Origin: Acidobacteriota bacterium
GTDB lineage: Bacteria; Acidobacteriota; Holophagae; Acanthopleuribacterales; Acanthopleuribacteraceae
Length of the DNA stretch: 20,090 nucleotides
Direction of reading: 5' to 3'
Assembly (NCBI GenBank): GCA_030066195.1
Contig: JASJCB010000204.1
Location: 1 to 20,090, forward strand
Under the pieces are notes generated by a model. It was given only the letters and a program-made list of their open reading frames with translations. It searched no databases and had not been told where the DNA came from. Both the position numbers and the translations under genes were made by a program. Positions 2,595-19,523 of the stretch are shown here, in pieces (the first letter of the stretch is position 1; each line of letters begins with the position of its first letter).

Positions 2595-3290
2595 ATGGAG
2601 TTATGGAATCTTGCCACCAGTCCGGTAATGTTGCCGCTAACCCTCATCTTCGGGCTTAGTATCGGCTACTGGATCGTGGTCATTGTCACCGGCATCGATT
2701 TCGATCTGGGTCTGGATGCCGACGTTGACGTGGATGTAGACGTGGATGTGGATGTAGACGTCGACGTGGACGCCGATGTTGACGCGGATGTGGATGCCCA
2801 TGCCGACCTCCACGGCGCCGCACATCAATTGGGTCCCCTGCTGTCCATGTTGGTCTTCTTCAACGTGGGAACCATACCGCTTACCTTTATCCTGGGTTTG
2901 AACGCCCTGTTCAGTTGGACCCTCGGCATGTTCGTGTTCAAAACTTTTCCGTTCAGCGGCCTGCTCGCCTATGCCCTGTACATTCCCATCTTCCTGGTGA
3001 GCGCCTTTGCCACCAAGCTGGTAACCCAACCGTTCGCCGGCATGGTGCGCCGCCACAAACAGGAAACGGCCGAGCGCCACACCGTCCTGGCCAAATTCGG
3101 CTATATGGAATCCGACAACGACGGTCAACGGCTTTCCCAATGCAAAGTACCTACCGACGGCGCCCCCTTTCTGGTCAATGTGAAGGCCCGTCCCGGCCAG
3201 GTCTTGAAACGGGGCGCCCGCGTGCTGATTATCGAGGAGGCCGAGGAAGGCAACTTCTACTACGTGGAAAATATGGATGAGAATAACTAG
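2595..3290 (+). CDS. NfeD/YqiJ-family membrane protein: N-terminal TM helices and C-terminal OB-fold-like NfeD domain. A (DV)n acidic repeat lies in the loop after TM1-2.
   Basis: AGGAG RBS about 12 nt upstream of ATG 2595 (track start 2592 is TTG). Several hydrophobic helices. C-terminal VPTDGAPFLVNVKARPGQVLKRGARVLIIEEAEEGNFYYVE resembles the NfeD beta-barrel. Sits immediately 5' of a flotillin gene, as in the yqiJ-yqiK and yuaF-floT arrangements. Confidence 0.7.
   Translation: MELWNLATSPVMLPLTLIFGLSIGYWIVVIVTGIDFDLGLDADVDVDVDVDVDVDVDVDADVDADVDAHADLHGAAHQLGPLLSMLVFFNVGTIPLTFILGLNALFSWTLGMFVFKTFPFSGLLAYALYIPIFLVSAFATKLVTQPFAGMVRRHKQETAERHTVLAKFGYMESDNDGQRLSQCKVPTDGAPFLVNVKARPGQVLKRGARVLIIEEAEEGNFYYVENMDENN
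2715..2807 (+). repeat. In-frame hexanucleotide tandem repeat (GAY GTN)x~15 encoding DADVDVDVDVDVDVDVDVDADVDADVDAHAD inside the NfeD-like gene.
   Basis: Seen directly in the sequence: alternating GAC/GAT and GTG/GTA/GTT/GTC codons with a few GCC substitutions. Confidence 0.9.
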
Positions 3291-3388
3291 GACTATTGAG
3301 AATCAAAACGTCCGTGACAAAAATCTGGTCGGTGTTTCCTATCGGGGAACCCGCATCACCGTGAAATACATTTTGGAGTGAACGACAT

Positions 3389-5770
3389 ATGGAATATTTA
3401 ATTATCGCCCTGGCGGGCCTTGTTGTCACCGTAATCGGGATTCTGTTCGTCTGGAAGAGTTTCTACCGCAAGGCCGTTCAAGGCCAGGCGCTGGTCAAAA
3501 CCGGTTTTGGGAAAACCAATGTCAGTTTCGACGCGGCCTGGGTCGTGCCGCTGTTGCACCGTTGCGAGGTAATGGACATTTCCGTCAAACGCGTCGTGTT
3601 GGAACGTAGCGGCAATGACGGCCTGGTCTGTCAGGACAATATGCGGGCCGATATCAAGGTCGCCTTCTTCGTCCGCGTCAACAACAATGTGGACGATGTC
3701 AAAAACGTTGCCACCACCATCGGGGTCACCCGTGCCTCCGATCGCCAGGCCATCAATGAGCTGTTCGATCCCAAATTCTCGGAAGCACTGAAGACAGCCG
3801 GCAAGAAGTTCGACTTCGTGGACCTCTACCAGGAACGCCGCCGCTTCAAAGAAGAGATTCTGGACGTTATCGGCACCGACCTCAACGGTTACATCTTGGA
3901 CGACTGCGCCATCGATTACCTGGAACAAACCGATATCAATAACCTCAGCGCCGACAACATTCTGGACGCAGAGGGCATCAAAAAGATCACCGAATTGACG
4001 GCCAACCAGAAGGTTCTGGCCAACCAGATCGATCGCGATCGCGAAAAGACCATCAAGCAGCAGGACGTTGAAGCGCAGGAAGCCATCCTCGAGTTGGAGC
4101 GCCAATTGGCCGAGACTCAGGAAAAGCAAAAGCGAGAGGTACTGTCCATCAAGGCCCGTGAGGCTGCCGAGGCCGCAAAGGTGCAACAGGAAGAACGCCT
4201 GAAAGCCGAAACCGCCCGCCTCCAGACCGAGGAAGAAGTTCAGGTAGCCACCCAGAACAAGGAACGCCAGGTCATCGTGGCCCAAAAGAACAAGGAACGC
4301 GCCGAGAAGATCGAGATCGAACGCATCGAGAAGGATCGTCAACTGGAAGTCATCGAGCGCGAACGCGTGGTAGAACTGACCACCATCGAAAAGGAACGGT
4401 CGGTAGAGGTAGAACGCAAGAACATCCAAGACGTGATCCGCGACCGCGTTGTGGTTGAGAAAGCGGTGGTCGAGGAAGAAGAGAAGATCAAGGACACCCG
4501 CGCCTTCGCAGAGGCGGAACGCGTCAAGCAGGTGACCGTCACCCAAGCCGCCACGGAAGCCGAAGAGGCCAAGGTCAAAGAAGTCAAGAAAGCGGAAGCC
4601 GAGAAGGAAGCGGCCGCGTTGCAGGCGGAGCAAAAGGTGATCGAAGCCGAGGCCGCGCGCAAATCGTCGGACAAAAACGCCGAGGCGCGTAAGGTTCTGG
4701 CCGAAGCCAAGGCCGCGGAAGACGCTACCATCGGCCTGGCCGAGGCCCAGGTGCAGGAAGCCAAGGCCAAGGCCGCCGAACTGGAAGGTCAGGCCCATGC
4801 CAACGTTCTGGAGAAGAAAGCCCTGGCGGAAGCAAAAGGCATCCAAGCCAAAGCCGATGCCATGGAGAAACAAGGTACGGCCGAGGCCAGTGTCATGGAG
4901 AAGAAAGCCGTCGCCGAGGCCAACGGCATCCAGGTCAAGGCCGATGCCCTGGAAAAGCAGGGCACCGTACGGGCAACCGTCCAGTTGAAGGAAATGGAAG
5001 CCAAGGCGAAGGGCACCGAAGCGCAGGGCACCGCCGAAGCCGTCGCCATGGAGAAACTGGCGTCCGCGGAAGCTTCAGGCCTGGCCATGAAGGTAGACGC
5101 CAAGGAAAAGGAAGGCTTGATGGAAGCCGCCGTCATCCAGAAGAAAGCCGAGGCCGAGGCTCGCGGCGAGGAAGCCCGCGCCGAAGCACTGGAACGCCTG
5201 GGCAGCGCCGAAGCCGCCAACCTGCTGAAGAAGTTCCAAGCCGACGCGCAGGGCATCCGCGAGAAGGCGGAAGCCATGAAGCTGTTCGATCCCGACGGCC
5301 GCAAGCACGAGGAATTCAAGCTGGAACTGGAAACGAAGCTGAAGGAAGTGCTGGCCTCGCTGGATACACAGAAGGACATCGCCAAAGCCCAGGCCGAAGT
5401 CATCGCCAAGGGCCTGGAAGCGGCCGATATCGAGATCGTGGGCGGCGAGTCCATGTTCTTCGACCGAATCGCCAACAGTATCGCCCAGGGCCGCTCGGTC
5501 GACCGTCTGCTGGAGAACAGCAAAGCCCTGACCGATGTCAAGGAGACCTTCTTCAACGGCGACCCCGAGTACTTCAAGTCGCAGCTCAAGGGTTTTGTGG
5601 ACCAGTTCGGCATGAGCAGCGCGGATCTCAAGAACCTGACGATCTCCGCGTTGATCGGCCAAATGATGAACAAAACCGACGACAGCAACACCCGCGGCCT
5701 GCTGGGCAAGCTCCTGGCCATGGCCGAAAGCGCCGGTCTGGGCAACCAATCCGCCGGCTTATTGGGTTGA
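3389..5770 (+). CDS. Flotillin-like SPFH/band-7 protein (YqiK/FloT family), 793 aa: N-terminal TM anchor, SPFH domain, and a very long E/A/K-rich coiled-coil tail with internal repeats.
   Basis: N-terminal hydrophobic helix (LIIALAGLVVTVIGILFVW). SPFH-like core (QALVKTGFG...VDISVKRVVLE...DNMRADIKVAFFVRV). EA-rich repetitive coiled coil typical of flotillins. Adjacent to an NfeD gene. GGAG RBS present. Confidence 0.9.
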   Translation: MEYLIIALAGLVVTVIGILFVWKSFYRKAVQGQALVKTGFGKTNVSFDAAWVVPLLHRCEVMDISVKRVVLERSGNDGLVCQDNMRADIKVAFFVRVNNNVDDVKNVATTIGVTRASDRQAINELFDPKFSEALKTAGKKFDFVDLYQERRRFKEEILDVIGTDLNGYILDDCAIDYLEQTDINNLSADNILDAEGIKKITELTANQKVLANQIDRDREKTIKQQDVEAQEAILELERQLAETQEKQKREVLSIKAREAAEAAKVQQEERLKAETARLQTEEEVQVATQNKERQVIVAQKNKERAEKIEIERIEKDRQLEVIERERVVELTTIEKERSVEVERKNIQDVIRDRVVVEKAVVEEEEKIKDTRAFAEAERVKQVTVTQAATEAEEAKVKEVKKAEAEKEAAALQAEQKVIEAEAARKSSDKNAEARKVLAEAKAAEDATIGLAEAQVQEAKAKAAELEGQAHANVLEKKALAEAKGIQAKADAMEKQGTAEASVMEKKAVAEANGIQVKADALEKQGTVRATVQLKEMEAKAKGTEAQGTAEAVAMEKLASAEASGLAMKVDAKEKEGLMEAAVIQKKAEAEARGEEARAEALERLGSAEAANLLKKFQADAQGIREKAEAMKLFDPDGRKHEEFKLELETKLKEVLASLDTQKDIAKAQAEVIAKGLEAADIEIVGGESMFFDRIANSIAQGRSVDRLLENSKALTDVKETFFNGDPEYFKSQLKGFVDQFGMSSADLKNLTISALIGQMMNKTDDSNTRGLLGKLLAMAESAGLGNQSAGLLG

Positions 5771-5778
5771 TCCACAAC

Positions 5779-5800
5779 GGGGGAGCCCGCGCGCTCCCCC
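5779..5800 (+). promoter_or_regulatory. GC-rich stem-loop (GGGGGAGC-ccgcgc-GCTCCCCC) between the flotillin stop and the giant ATPase start. No U-tract. Possible intra-operon attenuator or mRNA stabiliser.
   Basis: Perfect 8-bp inverted repeat read from the sequence, 9 nt after the flotillin TGA and 30 nt before the next start codon. Confidence 0.4.
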
Positions 5801-5830
5801 ACTTCATGCAAGACCGAGTATATCGATAGG

Positions 5831-8800
5831 GTGGATATGAGCGACGCTGTAGAAGAGCAAAAACAGGACGTCCAACTAGAGGGCGGCACCTACGAGATCA
5901 TCCGCAATCGACTCAACGGCCAGGCCGATGAATTGAGGGCGCGACTGAAGAAACTGAACGAAACCCGCAAGGCCACGTTCGGATCGATTGAAACCAAACT
6001 GGTGGGTAGCGAACGCATTACCACCGACAATAACTGTACGCCCAGGGACATGGTGCCCATCGGCGACAAATTTATCTTCGGCTACAATGTCCACGTGGGC
6101 TTACGCGCCGAGTTGGACCTGGACGATGTCTTCGCCGTTTACACCATCCATGACGACGGCTTCCGCCTGGAGAGCTTGGACCTGATCCGTGATCCCAAGT
6201 TCGAAAAAGATTTCCATAACTTATATAAGTATTATAAAAAAACTGTCTTTTCTACCTTTAAGGTCATCGGCCCCCACCTCTTCATGAAGTTTCGGGTGGG
6301 CGAGGCCATCAATGATTTCAAAACCTTCAAGTGGTTGATCGAGGGTGCCGGCCTTACGTATATGGACAACCGCTCCGACCACGAGTTCAAATACCCGCCC
6401 CAGCACGAATTCGAGTGGCTGCGCACTCGTCGCGACTGGTTCCGCATGGGCGCTCACCCGCATATCAGCATCGATGACCGCGTCTTTGTGGAGACCATCG
6501 GCGGCGACCTGACCATCAAGGTGGAAGACAATACCGACGTGGGCCACGGCATTCTGGACGAGCCCGTGGAAAACCCGGACCAGACCCTGGACGACGCTGA
6601 GATTTACTATGCCTCCATCGGTCCGCTGATTCTGCTGAAGATCCTGCCTTACCAGGAGAAGGAATGGCGCTACTTCGTCTTCAACGAGAAGTTGCAGGAG
6701 GCGCATCGCGTCGACGCCATTGCCGACAGTTGCGTGCTGCTGCCCGACGATCACGGCATCATCTTCCCCAAGGGTTACTACCTGCTGACGGGCGAGTTGA
6801 AAGAATTCGACAACCAGCTTTCCGACATGATCTTCGAAAGCCGCGTGCCCTCACCCAACGGCGAAGATTTCCTATACGTCTTCTACAACAGGCTGGACGG
6901 CGTCTATATCCTGCTCAGTTACAACTTGATCGAACAGAAGGTAGCCACGCCCATCATCTGCAGCGGCTTCTCGCTGTTTGAAGACGGCAAGCTGATCTAT
7001 TTCCGCGCCGACGCTCAACCCGCCAAGCACCACGCTCTGCAAATCTGGCAGACCGGCTACGTGGGACTCAACTACAAACAGGAAGACATGGCCGAAACCG
7101 CGCTCACCAAGATCGGCAACAAGGACGTGGTGCGCTGCATGGCGGAATGTCACGAGGTGCTGGTGCTCATCGGCAAGGAGGACGTCTACGCCAACCTGTA
7201 TGTGGACATCGTTCGCAAGGTCACGTCTATCGTTGACGCCTACTTCTGGCTGTCGAACGAGGGCGCCGAGAAACCACGCGAGGTGTTGGAACAGATTCGC
7301 ACCACCGCCAACGGGGCCATCGAGGAATTCGAGAAGGTCAACCGCATCAAAAAGGCCACCGCCGCCGAATTGGCGCGCGTCTCGGAAAAGGCCGATGCGC
7401 TGACTGCCGAGGTCAGCCGCACCCACTTCGAGGGCATTGGCGAATTCGTGCGCCTGCTGGCTGAACTGCGCACCCTGCGCGGCGAGATCATCGGCTGTCG
7501 TGAGCGCCGCTATATCGACCTGGAGCGCGTGGACGAATTGGAACAGCGCGCGGGCGAACAGGCCGATACGCTGTCGCAACGCTGCGTTGAGTTCCTATTG
7601 CAACCCGAAGCCTTGGAACCCTATGCCGATCGGGTAGCCGCACAGGAAACCGCGGTCGGCGACCTGGCTCGCGTCACCGCCGCCAAAGAGGTGGAAGACG
7701 CCCTGGACCAGGCCGGCAGCGACCTGGAACTGCTGATTGAAATCGTCAGCAATCTCAAGATCGACGACGCTACCGAGACCACCCGCATCATCGACAGTAT
7801 CTCGGCCATCTACGCCGACCTGAACCGGGTCAAAAGCGCGGTTAAAAACAAGAAAACCGAACTGGCCCGCGTGGAAGGCGTCGCCGAATTCAACGCCCAG
7901 ATGAAACTGGTCTCCCAAGGCCTCATCAACTACCTGGACGTCTGCGACACGCCGGATAAATGCGAGACCTACCTGACCAAGCTCACCGTGCAACTGGAAG
8001 AACTGGAAGGCAAGTTCGCCGAGTTCGACGAGTTCATCGAGCAGTTGACCGACAAACGCGAGGAAGTCTACAACGCCTTCGAGGCCAAGCGCCTGCAACT
8101 GGTAGAGGCCCGCAACAAAAAGGCAACCTCGCTGTTCGGTTCCGCCGAACGTATTCTCAAGGGTGTGCGCGGCCGCATCGCCAAATTCACCGACGTCAAC
8201 GAAATCAACGGTTACTTTGCCGGCGACCTGATGGTGGACAAGGTCCGCAACATCATGGCAAGCCTGGTGGACCTTGGTGAAACGGTGAAAGCCGACGACC
8301 TGCAAAGCCGTCTCAAGACCATCCGCGAAGAAGCCGTGCGCCAGTTGAAAGACAAGTTGGACCTGTACGAGGACGGCGGCAACCTGATCAAATTGGGCAA
8401 TCACAAATTCAGCGTCAACGCCCAGACCCTGGCTTTGACCACGGTCCTGCGCGAAGACAAACAGTACTTCCACCTCACGGGCACCAACTTCTTCGAGGAA
8501 ATCACGGACGCCGAACTCCTGGCCACCGAACCCGTCTGGGAGATGGAGGTCTCGAGTGAGAACCGCCGGGTTTACCGGGGCGAGTTCCTAGCCTACCAGA
8601 TGCTCCGCTCCCTGGAGACCGGTGAGGAACACACGGCTGCCGAAGCCCTGGCCATGGACGACGACGCCCTATTAACCTATGTCCAGCGATTCATGGGACC
8701 GCGTTTCAACGAGGGTTACGCCAAGGGCGTGCACGACCGTGACGCGGCATCGCTGCTGCGCGTGCTGCTGGAACTGCACGAAAAGCTGGGCCTGCTGGCC

Positions 8801-11248
8801 TATCCGCCGCGAACCCGCGCCTGCGCCATGGTCTTTTGGGAGCGCTTCTGTTCCGCCGGGCCTAAAGCCAACTTCCTGGCTACCTGCAAGGGCTTGCGCG
8901 CCCTGACCGAACTGTTCCCCGAGAACAAACAATCCGTTGCCTTTATCGCCGGCCTGGAGCAGTTGATCGGGCGCTTCTTGGAAACCTCCGGCCTGTTCGA
9001 GAGTCACCGCGCTCACGATGCCGCCGTCTACCTGTTCCGCGAGTTGATCCACGGCAACGGCTTCGCGATCTCCCAAGAGGCCGGCGTCATCTACCGGGAA
9101 CTGGTCGCCTACCTGAAACACCGCAACGCGCAAGACAGCTTCCGCGCCAACTTGAAGACCCTGGAAAAGGACCCGATCAAGGCATTCAACCTGTGCCGGG
9201 AGTGGGTGGCGGCCTATATCGACGCGGAAGTGAACGGCGAGGACGATTTTGAAGACGAAGTGGCGGCGCTGCTGTTCACTGAAAGCTACGATCCCGAACG
9301 GGTGGCCGAGGTTACCGTCAACCGCGACCTGACCGGGTTCAAGGGCAACCACCCGCTGCTTGAAGGCGGCAACTATCACCTGAACTACAACGCCTTCATG
9401 GAAAAGCTGGCCCAATTCCAACGGGATGTCAGCCCCAAGTACACGTGCTATCTCAGCTTGAAGAAAAAGCTCAGCGAAGAATTTGCCGTGGATTTGCGCC
9501 TGGAGGAATTCAAGCCGCGCGTGCTGACCAGTTTCGTGCGCAACAAGTTGTTGGACCAGGTCTACCTGCCGATTATCGGCGACAACCTGGCCAAGCAAAT
9601 CGGCGCCGCCGGCGCGGGCACCCGCACGGATCGCATGGGCATGCTCCTGCTCATATCACCCCCCGGCTACGGTAAAACCACCCTGATGGAGTACATCGCC
9701 AATCGCCTGGGCCTGATCTTCATGAAGATCAACGGGCCCGCCATCGGTCACGAGGCAACCAGTATCGACCCCGCCGCCGCCCCTCATTCCGCGGCTCGCG
9801 AGGAATTGAACAAGCTGAACCTGTCCTTGGAAATGGGCGATAACGTGATGATCTATCTGGACGACATCCAGCACTGTAACCCGGAACTCCTGCAAAAGTT
9901 CATCTCCCTGTGCGACGCCCAAAGGAAGATAGAGGGCGTCTACAAGGGCCGCACCCGCACCTATGACCTGCGCGGCAAGAAGGTCTGCGTGGTCATGGCG
10001 GGCAACCCCTACACCGAATCGGGCGACAAGTTCCAGATCCCCGACATGCTGGCCAACCGCGCCGACACCTACAACCTGGGCGATATCATCGGCGACCAGG
10101 CAAGCTCCTTCGAACTGAGCTATGTGGAAAACGCGCTGACCAGCAACCCGGTCCTCAATAAACTGGCGGGCCGCAGCCAGAAAGACGTCTATAGCCTGAT
10201 CAAAATCACGGAAACGGGAACCCGCGAGGGCATCGAACTCGAGGGCAATTACACCAATGAAGAAGTCAGCGAGTTCAGCAACGTCCTGGCCAAACTCTTC
10301 CGCGTGCGCGATGTCATCCTGCGCGTCAACCTGGAGTACATCCGCTCCGCGGCCATGGAAGACGCCTATCGCACCGAACCGGCCTTCAAGCTACAGGGCA
10401 GCTACCGCAATATGAATAAAATCGCCGAGAAGGTGCTGCCCATTATGAACGACGCGGAACTGGAAACCCTGATTGCCTCCCACTACGAAAACGAGGCCCA
10501 AACCCTGACCAGCGGCGCGGAAGCCAACCTGCTCAAGTTCCGCGAACTTTGCGGGACCATGACCGGGGAAGAACAAAACCGCTGGACCCAAATCAAGCGT
10601 ACCTTCCACAAAAAGCAATCCATGCACGGCGTCGATTCGGAAGACAAGGTGGGCCAGGTGATCTTGCAACTGGCCAATTTCGGCGAAGGTCTGGAGGCCA
10701 TCAAAGACACCCTGGCCAAGGTCGCGGAAAACCGCGAACCCATCGACGAAATCCAGGAAGAGGGCCCGTTGGAAACCCACACCACGCTGTCCCCGGACAC
10801 CCTCACAAACCTGGGCGGCCTGCTCCAACCCATGATGGAAACCATGGGCAAATCGTTGGCGCAAGCCACGGCCGGCCAGGAGGCAAACCGGGCGCTGGAA
10901 CAGGCAAGGGCGCAAATCCAGGCCCTGGAAGCGGCAAAAAGAGAAGCGGAAGCCAAAAAGCCGGAACCCGCACCCGCCCAACCTGCCGCACCTAAAAAAC
11001 CAACCCCGGAAATCGACCCGCGCTTCTTGATGAAGGTCATCCGCCAGCAGTTCAACGTCATGCACCACTGGCTGAAACCCCTCTACGACACGGCGGTCAA
11101 GAACGACAAAACGGTAGACGACCTGAACGCGGCGGTCAATAACCTCATGACCACCCACGGCAGCTTGCTGAACTACCTCCAGCAATTCCAGGGAACCAGG
11201 AAACCAGCTCCGAAACAACCGCCGAGAAGAAAGAAGACCGAAACTTAA
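5831..11248 (+). CDS. Giant 1805-aa protein. Residues 1 to ~1250 are unassigned, with coiled-coil segments around residues ~480-560 and ~700-780. Residues ~1260-1520 form an AAA+ ATPase core of the AAA_5/MoxR/McrB type. The tail has a Pro/Ala/Lys-rich linker and a small terminal domain. GTG at 5831 or ATG at 5837.
   Basis: Walker A LLLISPPGYGKTT (nt 9665..9682 = GYGKTT). Walker B VMIYLDDIQH (DD at 9860..9865). Sensor-1-like VVMAGNPYT. Arg motif PDMLANRADTYNL. Uninterrupted 5.4-kb ORF with host-like codon usage. AGGGTGG RBS. Only 60 bp from the flotillin gene. Confidence 0.85.
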   Translation: MDMSDAVEEQKQDVQLEGGTYEIIRNRLNGQADELRARLKKLNETRKATFGSIETKLVGSERITTDNNCTPRDMVPIGDKFIFGYNVHVGLRAELDLDDVFAVYTIHDDGFRLESLDLIRDPKFEKDFHNLYKYYKKTVFSTFKVIGPHLFMKFRVGEAINDFKTFKWLIEGAGLTYMDNRSDHEFKYPPQHEFEWLRTRRDWFRMGAHPHISIDDRVFVETIGGDLTIKVEDNTDVGHGILDEPVENPDQTLDDAEIYYASIGPLILLKILPYQEKEWRYFVFNEKLQEAHRVDAIADSCVLLPDDHGIIFPKGYYLLTGELKEFDNQLSDMIFESRVPSPNGEDFLYVFYNRLDGVYILLSYNLIEQKVATPIICSGFSLFEDGKLIYFRADAQPAKHHALQIWQTGYVGLNYKQEDMAETALTKIGNKDVVRCMAECHEVLVLIGKEDVYANLYVDIVRKVTSIVDAYFWLSNEGAEKPREVLEQIRTTANGAIEEFEKVNRIKKATAAELARVSEKADALTAEVSRTHFEGIGEFVRLLAELRTLRGEIIGCRERRYIDLERVDELEQRAGEQADTLSQRCVEFLLQPEALEPYADRVAAQETAVGDLARVTAAKEVEDALDQAGSDLELLIEIVSNLKIDDATETTRIIDSISAIYADLNRVKSAVKNKKTELARVEGVAEFNAQMKLVSQGLINYLDVCDTPDKCETYLTKLTVQLEELEGKFAEFDEFIEQLTDKREEVYNAFEAKRLQLVEARNKKATSLFGSAERILKGVRGRIAKFTDVNEINGYFAGDLMVDKVRNIMASLVDLGETVKADDLQSRLKTIREEAVRQLKDKLDLYEDGGNLIKLGNHKFSVNAQTLALTTVLREDKQYFHLTGTNFFEEITDAELLATEPVWEMEVSSENRRVYRGEFLAYQMLRSLETGEEHTAAEALAMDDDALLTYVQRFMGPRFNEGYAKGVHDRDAASLLRVLLELHEKLGLLAYPPRTRACAMVFWERFCSAGPKANFLATCKGLRALTELFPENKQSVAFIAGLEQLIGRFLETSGLFESHRAHDAAVYLFRELIHGNGFAISQEAGVIYRELVAYLKHRNAQDSFRANLKTLEKDPIKAFNLCREWVAAYIDAEVNGEDDFEDEVAALLFTESYDPERVAEVTVNRDLTGFKGNHPLLEGGNYHLNYNAFMEKLAQFQRDVSPKYTCYLSLKKKLSEEFAVDLRLEEFKPRVLTSFVRNKLLDQVYLPIIGDNLAKQIGAAGAGTRTDRMGMLLLISPPGYGKTTLMEYIANRLGLIFMKINGPAIGHEATSIDPAAAPHSAAREELNKLNLSLEMGDNVMIYLDDIQHCNPELLQKFISLCDAQRKIEGVYKGRTRTYDLRGKKVCVVMAGNPYTESGDKFQIPDMLANRADTYNLGDIIGDQASSFELSYVENALTSNPVLNKLAGRSQKDVYSLIKITETGTREGIELEGNYTNEEVSEFSNVLAKLFRVRDVILRVNLEYIRSAAMEDAYRTEPAFKLQGSYRNMNKIAEKVLPIMNDAELETLIASHYENEAQTLTSGAEANLLKFRELCGTMTGEEQNRWTQIKRTFHKKQSMHGVDSEDKVGQVILQLANFGEGLEAIKDTLAKVAENREPIDEIQEEGPLETHTTLSPDTLTNLGGLLQPMMETMGKSLAQATAGQEANRALEQARAQIQALEAAKREAEAKKPEPAPAQPAAPKKPTPEIDPRFLMKVIRQQFNVMHHWLKPLYDTAVKNDKTVDDLNAAVNNLMTTHGSLLNYLQQFQGTRKPAPKQPPRRKKTET

Positions 11249-14822: not shown

Positions 14823-15824
14823 TTGTTGCGGATTCTTTTCGAATCGAACCACGTATATCCGGCCGGCGGCTCTACCGGTACCGGTTTATCTCCCAATTCC
14901 CTGGCCACCGGCGGTTCCAGCATGGTTCACGACCTCCTGGCCCGTGCCCTGGCCGAGTTGGGTCATCAGGTCTTTTATCTCTTGCCCAACAGTCGCGATC
15001 CCGACCTGCCCGATGGGGTTACGCATCTCACTCATCCCATCGTCGATGTGGATGTCTTCCATCATTACAACAGTCAGAAGCTGTTCGAATCCAAAGCCCT
15101 TGAATCAATTCAAGCAGCCGGCATACCCTGGGTGGTTACCTGTCACAACGCGCCCGGGCATTGGGGCGGCGCTCGTGGTGATGTCCGCGACAATTGGATC
15201 TTCGTTTCCAAGACCCTGGCCGAAGCCCATGGCAGCGGGCGCTACGTTTGGAACGGCGTGGACCCGGAGGCGCTTCAGTTCAGTAGGGTCAAGCAGGACT
15301 ACCTTCTGTTCATCAGCAATATGCGGAACCTGGATCAGGTTTATGCCAAAGGTCTCGATCTTGCCTTGGAAGTTTCGGCCCGGTCGGGTTGCCCGCTACG
15401 GGTTATCGGTTCCTGCCGCGACCGCGAAACTATCGACGCCGTGACCGACATGTGCCGTCGCGCCGATGCTCACTTCCTGGGGGATGTTCGCGGTATCGAG
15501 AAAGCTCGACTCCTGGCCTCGGCCAAAGCACTTTTGTTTACCTCGCGATTACATGAGGCGTTCGGGCTTCCCATCATCGAGGCCGCGGTAAGCGGGACCC
15601 CGGTTATCAGCTTGAACATCGGCGCCGCCGAAGAACTGGTTTCCGTCAGCATGGGTTTCGTTTGTGCCGATGTTCAGGAGATGGTCTGTCGCGTCGACAG
15701 GGTATCGGCTGTCGACCCTGAGACCTGTCGGGCTCACGCACTCGAACGTTTTCACTACCACCGGACGGCGCGTGAATACCTGACGCAGTACCAATTGGAG
15801 ATGGAGGGCGTGTCATGTCCCTGA
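14823..15824 (+). CDS. Glycosyltransferase family 4 (GT-B, retaining type), TTG start.
   Basis: N-terminal ILFESNHVYPAGG and C-terminal EAFGLPIIEAAVSGTPVIS (E-x7-E) motifs typical of GT4. GGAG RBS 5 nt upstream. Confidence 0.75.
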   Translation: MLRILFESNHVYPAGGSTGTGLSPNSLATGGSSMVHDLLARALAELGHQVFYLLPNSRDPDLPDGVTHLTHPIVDVDVFHHYNSQKLFESKALESIQAAGIPWVVTCHNAPGHWGGARGDVRDNWIFVSKTLAEAHGSGRYVWNGVDPEALQFSRVKQDYLLFISNMRNLDQVYAKGLDLALEVSARSGCPLRVIGSCRDRETIDAVTDMCRRADAHFLGDVRGIEKARLLASAKALLFTSRLHEAFGLPIIEAAVSGTPVISLNIGAAEELVSVSMGFVCADVQEMVCRVDRVSAVDPETCRAHALERFHYHRTAREYLTQYQLEMEGVSCP

Positions 15825-16618
15825 CCCACCTGCAACGAGACTATTTCCACGATACCGGGTACCTGGCCCCGTTGCCGCTGTTGTCTCGGGAAGAAGCGGA
15901 GGTCTACCGTCAGCGCGCCGACCGAACGCGGCAACACTTGCACGGCGAGGACCTGGTGCAGCCCCATCTGTTCTTCGATTGGGCTCGCGAACTGGCCTTA
16001 TTACCACGAGTTCTGGACGCGGTGGAAAGCCTGATCGGTGCCGATATCCTGGTCCACAGCACCTCGCTCTTCTGGAAAGCGCCGGGGGACGGCGTTTTTG
16101 TCTCCTGGCATCAGGACGGTTATTATTGGCGGTTGTCGGAGCCCGAGGTCGTCTCGGCTTGGATCGCCCTGTCCGTCAGCAACCGGGAAGCGGGCTGCCT
16201 TCAGGTGATTCCCGGCAGTCAGCGGGACGGCGTTGTTCTTCATACCGAACGCCGCGCCCCCGGGAACATGTTGCGAAGCGGGTTGACCGTCGATCTCGAT
16301 GTGGACCCTGAACGCGCTGTCGCCGTGGAACTGACGTCCGGGCAGTTTTCCCTTCACCACGTCGATCTGGTTCACGGCTCCCGACCCAATACCTCCGATC
16401 AGGCTCGGGTTGGTTTTGCGGTGCGCTATATTCCTGCCGGGGTTCGCCAGGATTTCCCGCACCATGAAGTTATTCAAGCCAGGGGCGTGGATGACGCGGG
16501 GAATTATGCACATTGGGACGCCGAATTCAACGATGAAGAAGAGGCCCTGCGCGCCCATGCCCGCTTTAAAAAACGCCTGCGCACTTTTCGATTGGGCAAC
16601 AATAAGGAGAAAGCATGA
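15815..16618 (+). CDS. Phytanoyl-CoA dioxygenase (PhyH)-family Fe(II)/2-oxoglutarate-dependent oxygenase.
   Basis: WHQDGYYW...VSAWIALS...GCLQVIPGSQ...HHVDLVHGSRPN motifs (HxD...H facial triad) match the PhyH family. 10-nt overlap with the upstream GT4 gene. Confidence 0.75.
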   Translation: MSLTHLQRDYFHDTGYLAPLPLLSREEAEVYRQRADRTRQHLHGEDLVQPHLFFDWARELALLPRVLDAVESLIGADILVHSTSLFWKAPGDGVFVSWHQDGYYWRLSEPEVVSAWIALSVSNREAGCLQVIPGSQRDGVVLHTERRAPGNMLRSGLTVDLDVDPERAVAVELTSGQFSLHHVDLVHGSRPNTSDQARVGFAVRYIPAGVRQDFPHHEVIQARGVDDAGNYAHWDAEFNDEEEALRAHARFKKRLRTFRLGNNKEKA

Positions 16619-17472
16619 ATCCCATGCTCAAGAAGCTGGGGTTCGGCCCCAAGGATCGGGTTTGCATCATCCATGCCGATGACCTGGGGATGAGCGGCCG
16701 TGAACTGCCGGCTTTTGAGGATTTGCTGGACAGCGGCCTGCCGCTTTCCGGTTCGGTGATGGCGCCCTGCTCCGGCTTTGAGGAGGTCGCCGCTTGGGCC
16801 GTCGCACATGAAGAGGCCGACTTGGGCGTCCATCTCACCTTGACCAGCGAATGGGACGATTGGCGCTGGAAACCGTTGACCGGCGGAGCAAGTCTGCTGG
16901 ATTCGGAAGCTTGTTTAGCCAAAACCGTCGCCCTGCTGAACCGACATGCGGAGCCCGAGGACGTTCGCCGTGAGCTGTCGGCCCAAATCGAACGTGTCCG
17001 AAATGCCGGTATGAAACCCACGCATCTGGATTGCCATATGTACACCAGCCTGGCCGCGCCCTTTTTCGATATCTATTTAGACCTGGCCCTGGAGTGGAAC
17101 CTGCCGTCTTTCATCCCCCGGGAAGATCCCCGCTGGACCGGCGATCCCGGGTATAGAAGGGAACGGGTGAACGTTTGGGAACAGGCGGGTCGGCCGATTT
17201 TCGACACCCTGATGACCATGAAGAACCGGCCCGGCGACCGCTTGGAACAAGCCGTATCCAATATAACCAACCTGCCTGTCGGTCTGTCCTATGTTCTGCT
17301 GCATCCCGTCAAACCCGGCGGCGAACCGCTGACCCCGGACTGGCATTACCGCGAACAGGATTATGAAGCCTTCATCAGCCCTCGCTTTCGGGATGTTTTA
17401 AGGCAATCCGATGTACAATGTATCAGCTACAAAACACTGTTGCAGGAGCTCCCTAATGCCCGCCCTGAATGA
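16615..17472 (+). CDS. ChbG/HpnK/YdjC-family carbohydrate deacetylase.
   Basis: N-terminal RVCIIHADDLGMS matches the YdjC-family metal-binding motif (xIxxADDFG). ATGA start/stop overlap with the PhyH gene. Confidence 0.65.
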   Translation: MNPMLKKLGFGPKDRVCIIHADDLGMSGRELPAFEDLLDSGLPLSGSVMAPCSGFEEVAAWAVAHEEADLGVHLTLTSEWDDWRWKPLTGGASLLDSEACLAKTVALLNRHAEPEDVRRELSAQIERVRNAGMKPTHLDCHMYTSLAAPFFDIYLDLALEWNLPSFIPREDPRWTGDPGYRRERVNVWEQAGRPIFDTLMTMKNRPGDRLEQAVSNITNLPVGLSYVLLHPVKPGGEPLTPDWHYREQDYEAFISPRFRDVLRQSDVQCISYKTLLQELPNARPE

Positions 17473-18673
17473 GATCTTTCCCCATATTCTGTGCATCAAC
17501 CTGGATCGCAGACCCGAACGCTGGTCCGCTACTCAAGAGGAATTCGACCGCTTGCAAATCACCGGCGTCACACGAATTGCGGCCGTGGATGCTCGTCAAT
17601 TGCAGATCCCCGACCGCTGGAGCGATCCGCCTGGAGCCTACGGCTGTCTGCAAAGTCACCTGAAGGCGGTGCGTCACGCCCGCGATCAGGGTTGGCCGCA
17701 CGTGCTTATCTTGGAAGACGATGTGGTCTTTGCGAACGACCTGCACGAGCGACTCGCCGAGATTGCCGGCGAGTTGCCGGAAAAATGGGCCATGCTGTCC
17801 CTGGGCGGCATCCATCGCGAGGCGCCGGGAGAATACTCGACCGGGTTGTGCCGCATGCGTCAAACCCTTTCCACTCACGCCTACGCCTTGAGCGCCTGGT
17901 TCTATGATGCCTTCATCCAGGCGCATCAGGAGGAAAACGATCCGGTGGACGTGACCAATACCTGCCTGCAACGGGACCATCCCTGTTTCTGCGCCATGCC
18001 CCATCTCGCCTGGCAGCGGGACGGCTGGTCGGATGTTCAGCTGGAGCGCGAGAGCCACTGGTCGATCCGGGAATCGCTGGTGCTGGTGGGTGATTCGATG
18101 GACCTGTTGCTGCGCCACACCACCGTGGTGATCGCCTACAACGGCTCCGGCGGACCCGCGAACCTGAGCCATGTCATGCGCTTCTACGGCGAGAACTATC
18201 CCGACATGGAGATTCTGGTTATCGGCAACCGACCCGCGCCTTGGACCAAGGAACCGCCCGTTCCCTCGCGATATTTCCAAGTTGCCGAGGATGCGGAACG
18301 CGACGAAATGCTGCGCTTCGGCTACAGCTTTGCGCGCAAACCCAACCAGATCTTCATCTTCACCGATGCCGACGTGGTGCCCACCCGCGAACGCTACATC
18401 CGGGCGGCGGTAAGGATGTGCGAAAAGGTAGACGGGGCATCGGGATTTGCCCAATTGATTACCTTGAACAAAGACGACAGCATGCGCGTGCGCCGAGGTC
18501 AACAGAAAGCGGTGGATCTTGAGTCATACGAACCTATGTCAGATCTTCCGGCGGACCGGGCCTTATGCATTGTCACTCGCGACGGATTGGATCGCCTGGG
18601 CGGCTGGTTCCCGGAAGACCTGGGGGAGTTGGACCTCTACCCGTCACCCAACCGGGCGTTGCGGTTAAGTTGA
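17456..18673 (+). CDS. Two-domain glycosyltransferase: N-terminal GT25 (Lic2B/LgtB-like LPS glycosyltransferase) fused to a C-terminal GT-A/GT2-like domain with a DxD motif. Start probably the ATG at 17456 (track ORF begins at 17411).
   Basis: ILCINLDRRPERW...AAVDARQL matches the GT25 N-terminus. The C-terminal half has VVIAYNG...FIFTDADVVP (DAD). 17-nt overlap with the upstream gene. Confidence 0.65.
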   Translation: MPALNEIFPHILCINLDRRPERWSATQEEFDRLQITGVTRIAAVDARQLQIPDRWSDPPGAYGCLQSHLKAVRHARDQGWPHVLILEDDVVFANDLHERLAEIAGELPEKWAMLSLGGIHREAPGEYSTGLCRMRQTLSTHAYALSAWFYDAFIQAHQEENDPVDVTNTCLQRDHPCFCAMPHLAWQRDGWSDVQLERESHWSIRESLVLVGDSMDLLLRHTTVVIAYNGSGGPANLSHVMRFYGENYPDMEILVIGNRPAPWTKEPPVPSRYFQVAEDAERDEMLRFGYSFARKPNQIFIFTDADVVPTRERYIRAAVRMCEKVDGASGFAQLITLNKDDSMRVRRGQQKAVDLESYEPMSDLPADRALCIVTRDGLDRLGGWFPEDLGELDLYPSPNRALRLS

Positions 18674-18866: not shown

Positions 18867-19523
18867 CTAGGCTACCAACTTACTAACATAGGCGCCCACT
18901 ACGCCGGAGGCAATAAGCCCTAGCACATACAGAATAAAACTAGCGCCCACCCGCATTCTTTTACAAATTCCCGTCACCTTTGCATGTTCAAGCGGCCGAA
19001 CCTGTCCGATTGGGAATAATAAATCTCCTGTTTCCATGATGTTATGATCTGGTTTGGGATCCAGAAGCTTCCTTCTTTTTCCCGGCGTTACAGTTATGTG
19101 CACAAGATCCGCGTGGCAATCATGAGAAACCATCGTCTGTAGGAACATATGTTCTCTGAACCAGTCTCCAATAATTCTAAAGGGCTTGGAAACCGTGTAA
19201 CTGAATGAAAAGCTAAATTCGTCATCCATTTCCAAGTCTTTCCCGTACAAAATACTTATTTTTGTACCACCTTCCACGGACTCTTTTTTTGCTTGGAGGC
19301 TGTGGTCCTCAGAGATATAAGCACTTAGGTCTTGGATTTGGTCAACACCGACTTTGTGTTGCCAGTCACGATGGACTAAATCACCGATGACCCTGATGAC
19401 ATAAGAATAGGTATACCTGACTTTGTTTTTTTCTGTTAGATCTAATCCGTATTTAAGGGATACTATTTTTATTGTTGGGTCTATCGGAGTATTTGCTCTA
19501 TAGACATCATCTTTGTAAACCAT
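18867..19523 (-). CDS. Hypothetical 218-aa protein with a single C-terminal TM helix (tail-anchored), encoded in an AT-rich (~40% GC) islet. Likely horizontally acquired. Function unknown.
   Basis: Clean ORF with AT-rich codon usage unlike its neighbours. C-terminal ASFILYVLGLIASGVVGAYVSKLVA hydrophobic segment. No recognisable motifs. Confidence 0.45.
   Translation of the reverse strand: MVYKDDVYRANTPIDPTIKIVSLKYGLDLTEKNKVRYTYSYVIRVIGDLVHRDWQHKVGVDQIQDLSAYISEDHSLQAKKESVEGGTKISILYGKDLEMDDEFSFSFSYTVSKPFRIIGDWFREHMFLQTMVSHDCHADLVHITVTPGKRRKLLDPKPDHNIMETGDLLFPIGQVRPLEHAKVTGICKRMRVGASFILYVLGLIASGVVGAYVSKLVA

Follow-up and report, generated by a model that had tools for sequence, protein, structure and literature searches.

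A flotillin, a YqiJ-type membrane protein and a giant MoxR-like ATPase encoded in one conserved cassette: a candidate remodeller of flotillin membrane assemblies

Introduction

Operons in which a flotillin is encoded together with a very large ATPase were described by Ravi et al. (mSystems 2024, PMC11237479; preprint 2020), who reported CesT/Tir-PspA operons that also contain a band-7/flotillin gene, a gene for an ATPase with propeller, coiled-coil and AAA+ regions, and a gene for a YqiJ/YuaF-type protein with three transmembrane (TM) segments. According to the same paper, abbreviated operons with the flotillin, YqiJ/YuaF and sometimes the ATPase are widespread, PspA may then be encoded elsewhere, and chaperone-like assembly roles are proposed; from gene context the paper draws the same inference as the one made here. 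We analysed such a cassette on the 20,090-bp contig JASJCB010000204.1 of an Acidobacteriota metagenome-assembled genome (MAG), the whole of which is referred to below as the window. Three genes on the same strand of the window encode a YqiJ-like membrane protein, a flotillin and a giant ATPase, and the flotillin and ATPase genes prove to be near-obligate neighbours across many phyla. We propose, with moderate confidence, that the products of this cassette use ATP to remodel membrane assemblies of flotillin (and PspA) and have a role in membrane stress.

In the naming scheme of Hinderhofer et al. (2009, PMC2636767), YqiJ/YuaF-type proteins are called NfeD2; neither that paper nor a paper on a Pseudomonas aeruginosa SPFH protein mentions the ATPase. 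In Bacillus subtilis, the SPFH protein YdjI is needed to bring PspA to the membrane (PMC8581546). The role and control of bacterial flotillin assemblies are unsettled, and the subfamily considered here brings a dedicated ATPase partner to the question. A first-pass annotation of the window, made from the sequence alone, had presented the cassette as a candidate uncharacterised membrane-microdomain machine. As to experimental work that description stands, but the association itself counts as already published, because the Dokdonia donghaensis neighbourhood in Table S3 of Ravi et al. is matched gene for gene by a Dokdonia sp. locus whose ATPase carries DUF3686, DUF7902 and AAA. These profile matches confirm the ATPase of Ravi et al. 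as a member of the DUF3686 family and, judged by gene content and domain architecture, the cassette in the window is an abbreviated form of the operon type they described.

Results

The flotillin and ATPase genes are linked in both directions

Open reading frame (ORF) calling and translation confirmed three forward-strand genes where the first-pass annotation had placed them, with a gap of 98 bp between the NfeD-like (YqiJ-like) and flotillin genes and the annotated gap of 60 bp between the flotillin and ATPase genes (Table 1). Linkage was then measured in both directions. In the forward test, a scan for the ATPase in one genome per species gave 80 loci, 61 of which have at least 4.5 kb of upstream DNA. 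A flotillin orthologue (E about 1e-200) lies directly upstream on the same strand at 58 of these 61 loci and a YqiJ-like gene is present at 55; the ATPase loci are spread over Planctomycetota, Bacteroidota, Verrucomicrobiota, Desulfobacterota, Kiritimatiellota, Omnitrophota and Clostridia (seven or more phyla). The reverse test started from 80 metagenomic loci of this flotillin subfamily. The ATPase follows the flotillin at 59 of the 62 loci with sufficient downstream DNA, and a YqiJ-like gene precedes it at 65/69. As 58 of 61 independent loci retain the adjacency of flotillin and ATPase, this adjacency is far beyond chance, and the linkage is near-obligate in both directions. The counts support the first-pass proposal that the flotillin/NfeD pair and the giant MoxR-type ATPase are one functional unit, and they are the opposite of what that annotation had named as evidence to the contrary, homologues of the giant protein that usually lie apart from SPFH and NfeD genes. 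In addition, pairwise distances are correlated among the three proteins (r 0.69-0.79, Mantel p 0.001). For the ATPase, pairwise identity across phyla is 50% on average over about 1,700 residues and nowhere below 42%. Three of the ATPase loci (L020, L023 and L035) have ample upstream DNA and no flotillin or YqiJ-like gene within reach.

All-against-all clustering of the ORFs from the 80 loci found no fourth gene conserved across phyla. A fourth conserved gene was sought both downstream and in the gap between flotillin and ATPase and was rejected, the genes in the gap being variable (L015, 8715-9383; L009, 8621-9250; L073, 7841-9741). They include an AbiEii toxin-like gene (L015), a DMP19-like gene, DUF3592 and unknown proteins, and the spacer therefore tolerates insertions. 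The trio also occurs on large plasmids or secondary replicons, namely in Pseudomonas fluorescens (pQBR103), Streptomyces, Deinococcus, Hymenobacter and Vibrio, and the family is found in Proteus mirabilis, Vibrio campbellii and flavobacteria as well. No match to the ATPase was obtained by tblastn in 50,697 phage records.

The first two genes encode an NfeD2-SPFH2 pair

The reading frame of the first gene may start at 2592 or 2595, of which the ATG at 2595 is likelier and gives a protein of 231 residues. Hydropathy analysis shows three hydrophobic segments (about residues 6-36, 81-115 and 117-143), with an acidic DxDx loop behind the first and an OB-like beta domain at the C-terminus (about 160-225). 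The loop is encoded by a tandem DNA repeat (Table 1), and a D-x-D-x loop of variable length is present at the same place in all aligned orthologues. In hhalign, a profile of 14 orthologues matches Escherichia coli YqiJ with a probability of 93.9% (E 1.5e-7) in an alignment that spans TM2 to the OB domain, and BLASTP gives E 8e-4. No Pfam model matches the protein of the window, including YqiJ_N, YqiJ_OB and NfeD; over 15 sequences, E. coli YqiJ itself among them, YqiJ_N matches six, YqiJ_OB one and NfeD one. The orthologue in Hymenobacter carries the RefSeq label DUF1449. Because of the hhalign result, the YqiJ_N matches of orthologues and the DUF1449 label, the first gene product is assigned to the YqiJ/YuaF type, NfeD2 in the scheme cited above.

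In the flotillin, hydropathy analysis shows a hydrophobic segment at the N-terminus (residues 1-26), which serves as membrane anchor. The SPFH domain comes next (about 27-200), then a long coiled coil rich in Glu, Lys and Ala (about 200-640), and the chain ends in a C-terminal domain specific to the subfamily (about 640-793; nt 5306-5767). In a comparison of a 25-orthologue profile with E. coli YqiK, hhalign gave a probability of 99.95% (E 1.9e-37, 30% identity over 407 columns), and the alignment covers the membrane anchor, the SPFH domain and the coiled coil. The Glu/Lys/Ala-rich region can also be aligned with the coiled-coil parts of QmcA and flotillin-2. The flotillin of the window matches neither Band_7 (PF01145) nor Flot (PF15975), nor any other Pfam model, at E<=0.1, and among 25 orthologues only two reach Band_7 and none Flot. 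These misses reflect the sensitivity of the models for a divergent subfamily and are not evidence against flotillin homology. Searches of PDB sequences, with the single sequence and with a profile, returned coiled-coil matches only and gave no assignment. The C-terminal 163 residues show no BLASTP similarity to YqiK, and the C-terminal domain is kept at 79 of 80 subfamily loci. By homology, then, the YqiJ-like protein and the YqiK-type flotillin are the familiar NfeD2-SPFH2 pair.

The ATPase joins a propeller and a helical rod to a MoxR-like AAA+ module

Residue numbers of the ATPase count from the GTG codon at 5831, whereas the public record of the protein, to which the translation is 100% identical, begins at the ATG at 5837. 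Hydropathy analysis found no hydrophobic segment, and the protein is predicted to be soluble, with no TM segment. The first-pass annotation had described some 1,500 residues outside the AAA+ core as free of assignable motifs apart from coiled coils. This was too pessimistic, as Pfam assigns DUF3686 to residues 34-472 (E 1.1e-184) and DUF7902 to residues 593-676; an NCBIfam scan yielded no meaningful assignment. Two AlphaFold2 (AF2) models were obtained on 98-sequence alignments, one of residues 1-880 with a predicted local distance difference test (pLDDT) score of 85.9 and one of residues 841-1805 with a score of 83.3. In the models, a long helix (residues 12-50) precedes a divergent beta-propeller of about six or seven four-stranded blades, and the top Foldseek matches of this beta domain in the PDB are propellers at E 1e-5 to 1e-3, including acylaminoacyl peptidase, Elp1, tricorn, prolyl oligopeptidase, paraoxonase, CyRPA, WD40 proteins and the clathrin terminal domain. 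The propeller is followed by a rod of spectrin-like repeats (Table 1). As further evidence to the contrary, the first-pass annotation had named a match of the N-terminal region to a well-characterised family such as SbcC/SMC or a known MoxR partner, which would have explained the protein without the flotillin; the region matches none of these, and a propeller with spectrin-like repeats was found instead. Across the small beta and all-helical region behind the rod, pLDDT is mostly above 90, but the region received no family assignment. Searches of PDB sequences with the ATPase, as a single sequence and as a profile, gave only coiled-coil or P-loop matches, and the profile searches found nothing beyond the P-loop.

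Table 1. Features of the cassette, with positions in the window
Feature	Position	Strand	Size, residues and basis
YqiJ/YuaF-type (NfeD2-like) inner-membrane protein	2595..3290	+	231 aa; ORF, hydropathy, hhalign
Imperfect 6/12/18/24-bp tandem DNA repeat coding for the (Asp-Val)n acidic loop between TM1 and TM2	2713..2802	+	Tandem Repeats Finder
YqiK/SPFH2-type flotillin	3389..5770	+	793 aa; ORF, hhalign, hydropathy
GC-rich 8-bp hairpin (GGGGGAGC / GCTCCCCC)	5779..5800	+	RNA folding of the 60-bp flotillin-ATPase spacer
Giant AAA+ ATPase, predicted soluble	5837..11248	+	1803 aa from ATG 5837, 1805 aa from GTG 5831
Predicted divergent beta-propeller	5996..7051	+	ATPase residues ~56-407, within DUF3686; AF2, Foldseek
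Predicted spectrin-like helical-bundle repeats / coiled coil	7100..8365	+	ATPase residues ~424-845, holds DUF7902
Predicted small beta domain (~852-890), all-helical domain (~916-1150) and long connecting helix	8384..9505	+	AF2
MoxR-like AAA+ module	9599..10630	+	ATPase residues ~1257-1600; Pfam, Foldseek, AF2
Pro/Ala/Lys-rich linker and C-terminal helices with conserved Q-F...W..P motif	10733..11248	+	low confidence, AF2 pLDDT <60

The motor domain lies near the C-terminus. Pfam matches residues 1272-1395 with AAA (27.8 bits, cut-off 21.2) and AAA_5 (25.1 bits, cut-off 22), and Foldseek of the module ranks CbbQ first and NorQ third, with MCM, RuvB, ClpA/B and Lon among later matches. MCM, RuvB, ClpA/B and Lon are AAA+ families that carry a hairpin before sensor-1, and the AF2 model places a beta-hairpin between helix 3 and the sensor-1 strand (about residues 1366-1379). 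Together these results support a MoxR-like AAA+ (AAA_5) motor, in agreement with the core named in the first-pass annotation. Walker A reads GYGK(1282)TT, and K1282, which had been correctly picked out as its lysine, is invariant in alignments of 16 and of 98 homologues. Walker B reads YLDD (D1344, D1345; nt 9860-9865), with Asp-Asp rather than Asp-Glu, and both Asp residues are likewise invariant in the two alignments. The other motifs are AGN(1392)P at sensor-1, the conserved arginine R1410 and, in the lid, QGSYR(1526)NMN. Motif residues do not vary among the 16 homologues, and in the 98 they are either invariant or conserved to at least 90%.

More than 5,000 homologues of the ATPase were found at E<=1e-5, and an exhaustive HMMER search with the propeller returned 752 family clusters at 50% identity. 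Among the best 150 matches listed, full-length family members are about 1,600-2,040 residues long and have the propeller match at the N-terminus. Because they share this size range and the N-terminal propeller, the architecture of the family looks fixed. Two homologues, P0087 (1950 aa) and P0090 (1906 aa), have extra HEAT-repeat or ankyrin-repeat Pfam domains, which are protein-binding modules added to the same chassis. The C-terminal tail is clade-specific, being present in Planctomycetota- and Desulfobacterota-type homologues, and the ATPases of Bacteroidota and many Verrucomicrobiota (about 1,600-1,660 aa) are too short to contain it; phmmer with the tail matched only 10 of 80 loci.

Genes near the cassette in other clades include PspA

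In Bacteroidota, a PspA/IM30 gene directly precedes the trio at 20 of the 26 loci with enough upstream DNA, and 18 of those 20 also have a CesT_Tir_1 chaperone gene and a divergent regulator with helix-turn-helix (HTH) and S24 domains. On pQBR103, the trio is preceded by a PspA/YjfJ-type operon, a block of PspA, rhomboid, DUF2491, DUF350, DUF1190 and glutathionylspermidine-synthase genes. On chromosome 2 of Vibrio campbellii (L167, 12864-14642), a gene for a 234-aa PLD-like (PLDc_2) protein starts at the very next base after the ATPase stop codon and is followed by a TelA gene. This locus confirms the PLD association that Ravi et al. reported in Proteobacteria and adds TelA to it. In Streptomyces, a TerD gene lies near the trio. 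As a context of PspA, PLD and TelA recurs, membrane repair or remodelling is the favoured role among those that the first-pass annotation had left open, and the defence or abortive-infection option listed beside it found no support.

Two further observations concern individual clades. A regulator of about 170 residues resembling phage CII (CP76) is encoded at seven loci of Verrucomicrobiota/Kiritimatiellota (L024, L034, L041, L042, L045, L056 and L067), about 3.2 kb upstream of the ATPase and mostly divergent. Its regulatory role may be particular to these clades and comparable to that of the HTH-S24 protein in Bacteroidota. In a Phycisphaerae MAG (L079, 4766-5449), a weak PspA-like ORF lies directly downstream of the ATPase (E 2e-4 with the hidden Markov model (HMM) of Bacteroidota PspA).

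Expression signals and surroundings in the window

Two further arguments had been offered for the cassette as a single unit, an attenuator-like hairpin and shared codon usage. The 8-bp stem in the flotillin-ATPase spacer does exist, but it lacks a U tract, no terminator is called there, and its folding energy is ordinary (z -1.46, with 19 of 200 shuffles folding equally well or better). The attenuator was accordingly set aside, although the hairpin could be, unproven, an mRNA stabiliser or a partial attenuator that reduces the stoichiometry of the ATPase. A terminator scan found no terminator-like sites on the forward strand within the cassette. GC content at third codon positions (GC3) is indeed similar in the three genes (0.72-0.79), but because it is similar in most neighbouring genes too (0.65-0.76), codon usage says little about a single unit and was dropped as evidence.

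Around the cassette lie genes for an AraC regulator, a beta-helix protein, a DUF6624 protein and an LVIVD protein, along with an unknown ORF and a glycosyltransferase cluster. Searches of the six-frame translation of the window with PspA, CesT and HTH-S24 HMMs returned nothing at E<=10. Directly upstream of the cassette is a 318-aa ORF (1282-2238, +) of lower GC content (0.50) with no Pfam or PADLOC match, and ORF clustering of the 80 loci did not find it adjoining the cassette elsewhere. Farther downstream, genes for a GT4 glycosyltransferase (with a secondary match to 'GT4-conflict', E 4e-9), a PhyH dioxygenase, a YdjC-like deacetylase and a GT25 glycosyltransferase overlap or abut one another (14823-18673), which looks like a glycan-modification operon unrelated to the flotillin cassette. 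A 218-aa ORF on the reverse strand (18867-19523) has a GC content of 0.42, a GC3 of 0.43, no Pfam or PADLOC match and a codon usage that departs from that of the rest of the contig (r 0.17 against the ATPase). In the final kilobase of the contig (19001-20090), GC content is 0.44 against about 0.58 elsewhere, and this low-GC end with its ORF may be foreign DNA.

Discussion

The conserved linkage and the domain composition of its products suggest how the cassette could work. On the cytoplasmic side of the membrane, the flotillin would oligomerise to form a cage or patch, and the YqiJ-like protein would be its membrane partner; the solved SPFH cages (flotillin-1/2, HflK/C and QmcA-YbbJ) serve as the model for this proposal. 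The ATPase would hexamerise through its AAA+ module, and its propeller-and-rod arms would reach the flotillin lattice. Contact with the ATPase would most likely be made by the C-terminal domain that is peculiar to this flotillin subfamily, a detail held with less confidence than the proposal as a whole. ATP hydrolysis would then assemble, open, disassemble or relocate the flotillin scaffold and, where PspA is present, would act on the ESCRT-III-like PspA polymer as well. The physiological role would be protection and repair of the envelope and membrane under stress. Such a logic would resemble that of Vps4 on ESCRT-III or of FtsH inside HflK/C, but with a non-proteolytic remodeller of the MoxR type. 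We go further only tentatively, and with less confidence than for remodelling in general, in suggesting that the products form one megadalton machine in which ATP hydrolysis opens, moves or dismantles the SPFH cage and, where it is present, the PspA/ESCRT-III polymer.

Several observations weigh against flotillin remodelling. Flotillin is missing at three of the 61 ATPase loci (L020, L023 and L035), and the correlation of pairwise distances among the three proteins could come partly from shared species phylogeny. The window and most loci outside Bacteroidota have no PspA within 10 kb, and the link to PspA therefore applies to the window only by extension. The Asp-Asp Walker B could mean slow hydrolysis and a switch-like rather than motor-like role. 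MoxR proteins typically act with a VWA-domain partner, and here the cassette differs from them: no VWA gene is conserved nearby in the 80 loci, and none was found among the genes of the window or in the annotated examples from Pseudomonas, Streptomyces, Deinococcus, Hymenobacter and Dokdonia. Finally, full-text literature searches found no experimental paper on this operon.

The main rival, which we consider rather unlikely, is a client-directed chaperone resembling HflK/C-FtsH minus the protease, in which the scaffold gathers damaged or unfolded membrane proteins and the ATPase extracts them, disaggregates them or hands them over. The linkage evidence serves this explanation as well as it serves remodelling of the flotillin, and modules such as the propeller and the rod typically bind clients or adaptors. 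For Staphylococcus aureus FloA-NfeD, stabilisation of unfolded proteins that needs no ATP has been reported (PMC11222466), and this ATP-independent activity leaves room for an ATP-dependent partner; the chaperone-like assembly roles proposed by Ravi et al. (PMC11237479) point the same way. The ATPase, however, lacks the aromatic pore-loop motif of classical unfoldases, the conserved loop behind strand 2 being NGPAIGH, and no protease or other downstream handler is conserved with it. The specialised C-terminal domain of the flotillin further argues that the flotillin itself is what is recognised.

A membrane-associated role in anti-phage defence or abortive infection is improbable, although the patchy distribution, which includes plasmids, would suit it, as would the LexA-like S24 and phage CII-like regulators adjacent in some clades, the AbiEii gene between flotillin and ATPase at one locus (L015), the PLD-like gene in Vibrio and a weak LmuB-like PADLOC match. 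That match (E 7e-5, residues 497-869) falls on coiled coil, and the other PADLOC matches concern the P-loop only. The defence-island check suggested by the first-pass annotation gave no support, since the ten neighbours in the window have zero PADLOC matches and the ATPase is absent from the 50,697 phage records. An average identity of 50% is judged unusually high for a defence gene, and the conserved neighbours are PspA, CesT and TelA, which are not defence genes.

We regard as equally doubtful a structural membrane skeleton or coat, in which propeller and rod would form a scaffold beneath flotillin patches that shapes membranes or forms vesicles; on this explanation, the AAA+ module would be no more than an oligomerisation or switch domain. 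A spectrin-like rod, Foldseek matches that include the clathrin terminal domain plus linker and nucleoporins, the Asp-Asp Walker B and the abundance of the family in Planctomycetota and Verrucomicrobiota are all in its favour. The invariant nucleotide-binding and sensor residues nevertheless point to real ATP turnover, the family is also found in bacteria without complex endomembranes, and the propeller matches are generic and have low TM-scores.

Highly improbable is a DNA repair ATPase that adjoins the flotillin operon by coincidence, as it is favoured only by the names given in NCBI and Pfam ('DNA repair ATPase' and 'ATPase involved in DNA repair'), while searches of Pfam, NCBIfam and PDB found no nuclease, DNA-binding or SMC/ABC-type head domain, no SMC, SbcC or AAA_23 model matches the single AAA+-type P-loop module near the C-terminus or the rest of the protein, the only SMC-like similarity is the weak LmuB match in the coiled-coil region, and the linkage to flotillin reaches 95% in both directions. 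We infer that the name arose because coiled-coil sequence matched SbcC-type COGs. Thousands of sequences bear it, and it finds no support in sequence or context.

Remodelling of flotillin assemblies thus remains our preferred explanation of the cassette. The average ATPase identity of 50% over seven or more phyla implies a precise, selectable biochemical cycle, and the recurrent fusion with PspA operons ties flotillin biology to ESCRT-III-like membrane repair. If the proposal is true, this would be the first known energy-driven remodeller of SPFH cages and a bacterial counterpart of Vps4/ESCRT logic, and bacterial flotillins would gain a defined biochemical cycle. The operon type is very widespread and unusually conserved, and it is a good experimental target rather than a new discovery. 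As the family occurs in tractable organisms, including Pseudomonas fluorescens SBW25 with pQBR103, Vibrio campbellii, Proteus mirabilis, Streptomyces and flavobacteria, it is directly testable.

Among known systems, the operons of Ravi et al. are the closest, with three core genes, a gene order and domain architectures that all match the window; the window differs in having no CesT/Tir, PspA or HTH-S24 regulator genes. Their paper gives no linkage statistics, AAA+ clade assignment, structure or experiment. To that description the present analysis adds reciprocal linkage statistics, the assignment of a MoxR-like motor, models of a propeller and a spectrin-like rod, a fixed architecture, the invariant Asp-Asp Walker B, the private C-terminal domain of the flotillin and the observation that the 'DNA repair' name is unsupported.

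Escherichia coli YqiJ-YqiK and Bacillus subtilis YuaF-FloT share with the cassette an OB-fold protein with three TM segments encoded upstream of an N-terminally anchored flotillin. In E. coli, however, no ATPase gene lies downstream of yqiK, the flotillin of the window is 240 residues longer than YqiK and ends in a C-terminal domain unlike it, and the proteins of the window do not reach the thresholds of the Pfam models for YqiJ-type proteins and flotillins. HflK/C-FtsH offers the parallel of an SPFH scaffold functionally paired with an AAA+ machine of the inner membrane. FtsH is a membrane-anchored protease of the classical AAA+ clade whose gene lies outside the hflKC operon, whereas the ATPase of the window is predicted to be soluble, MoxR-like and protease-free and is encoded inside the operon.

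The MoxR remodellers CbbQ-CbbO, NorQ-NorD and RavA-ViaA include the nearest structural neighbours of the motor (6l1q, 9qh4-9qh8), share its AAA_5 assignment, and have counterparts of its AGNP at sensor-1 and its PS1 beta-hairpin. MoxR proteins are about 250-500 residues long, while the module of the window sits at about residues 1257-1600 of an 1,800-residue protein with propeller and rod and has DD in Walker B. Vps4/ESCRT-III and Bacillus subtilis PspA-YdjGHI differ from the cassette in their components. The ATPase has neither an MIT domain nor a Vps4-type classical AAA+ module, PspA is absent from the window, and YdjI is a different, cytosolic SPFH protein (PMC8581546). The likeness is one of principle, a polymer that remodels membranes being controlled by an ATPase or SPFH protein, and in Bacteroidota and on pQBR103 PspA stands within the same operon as the flotillin and its ATPase.

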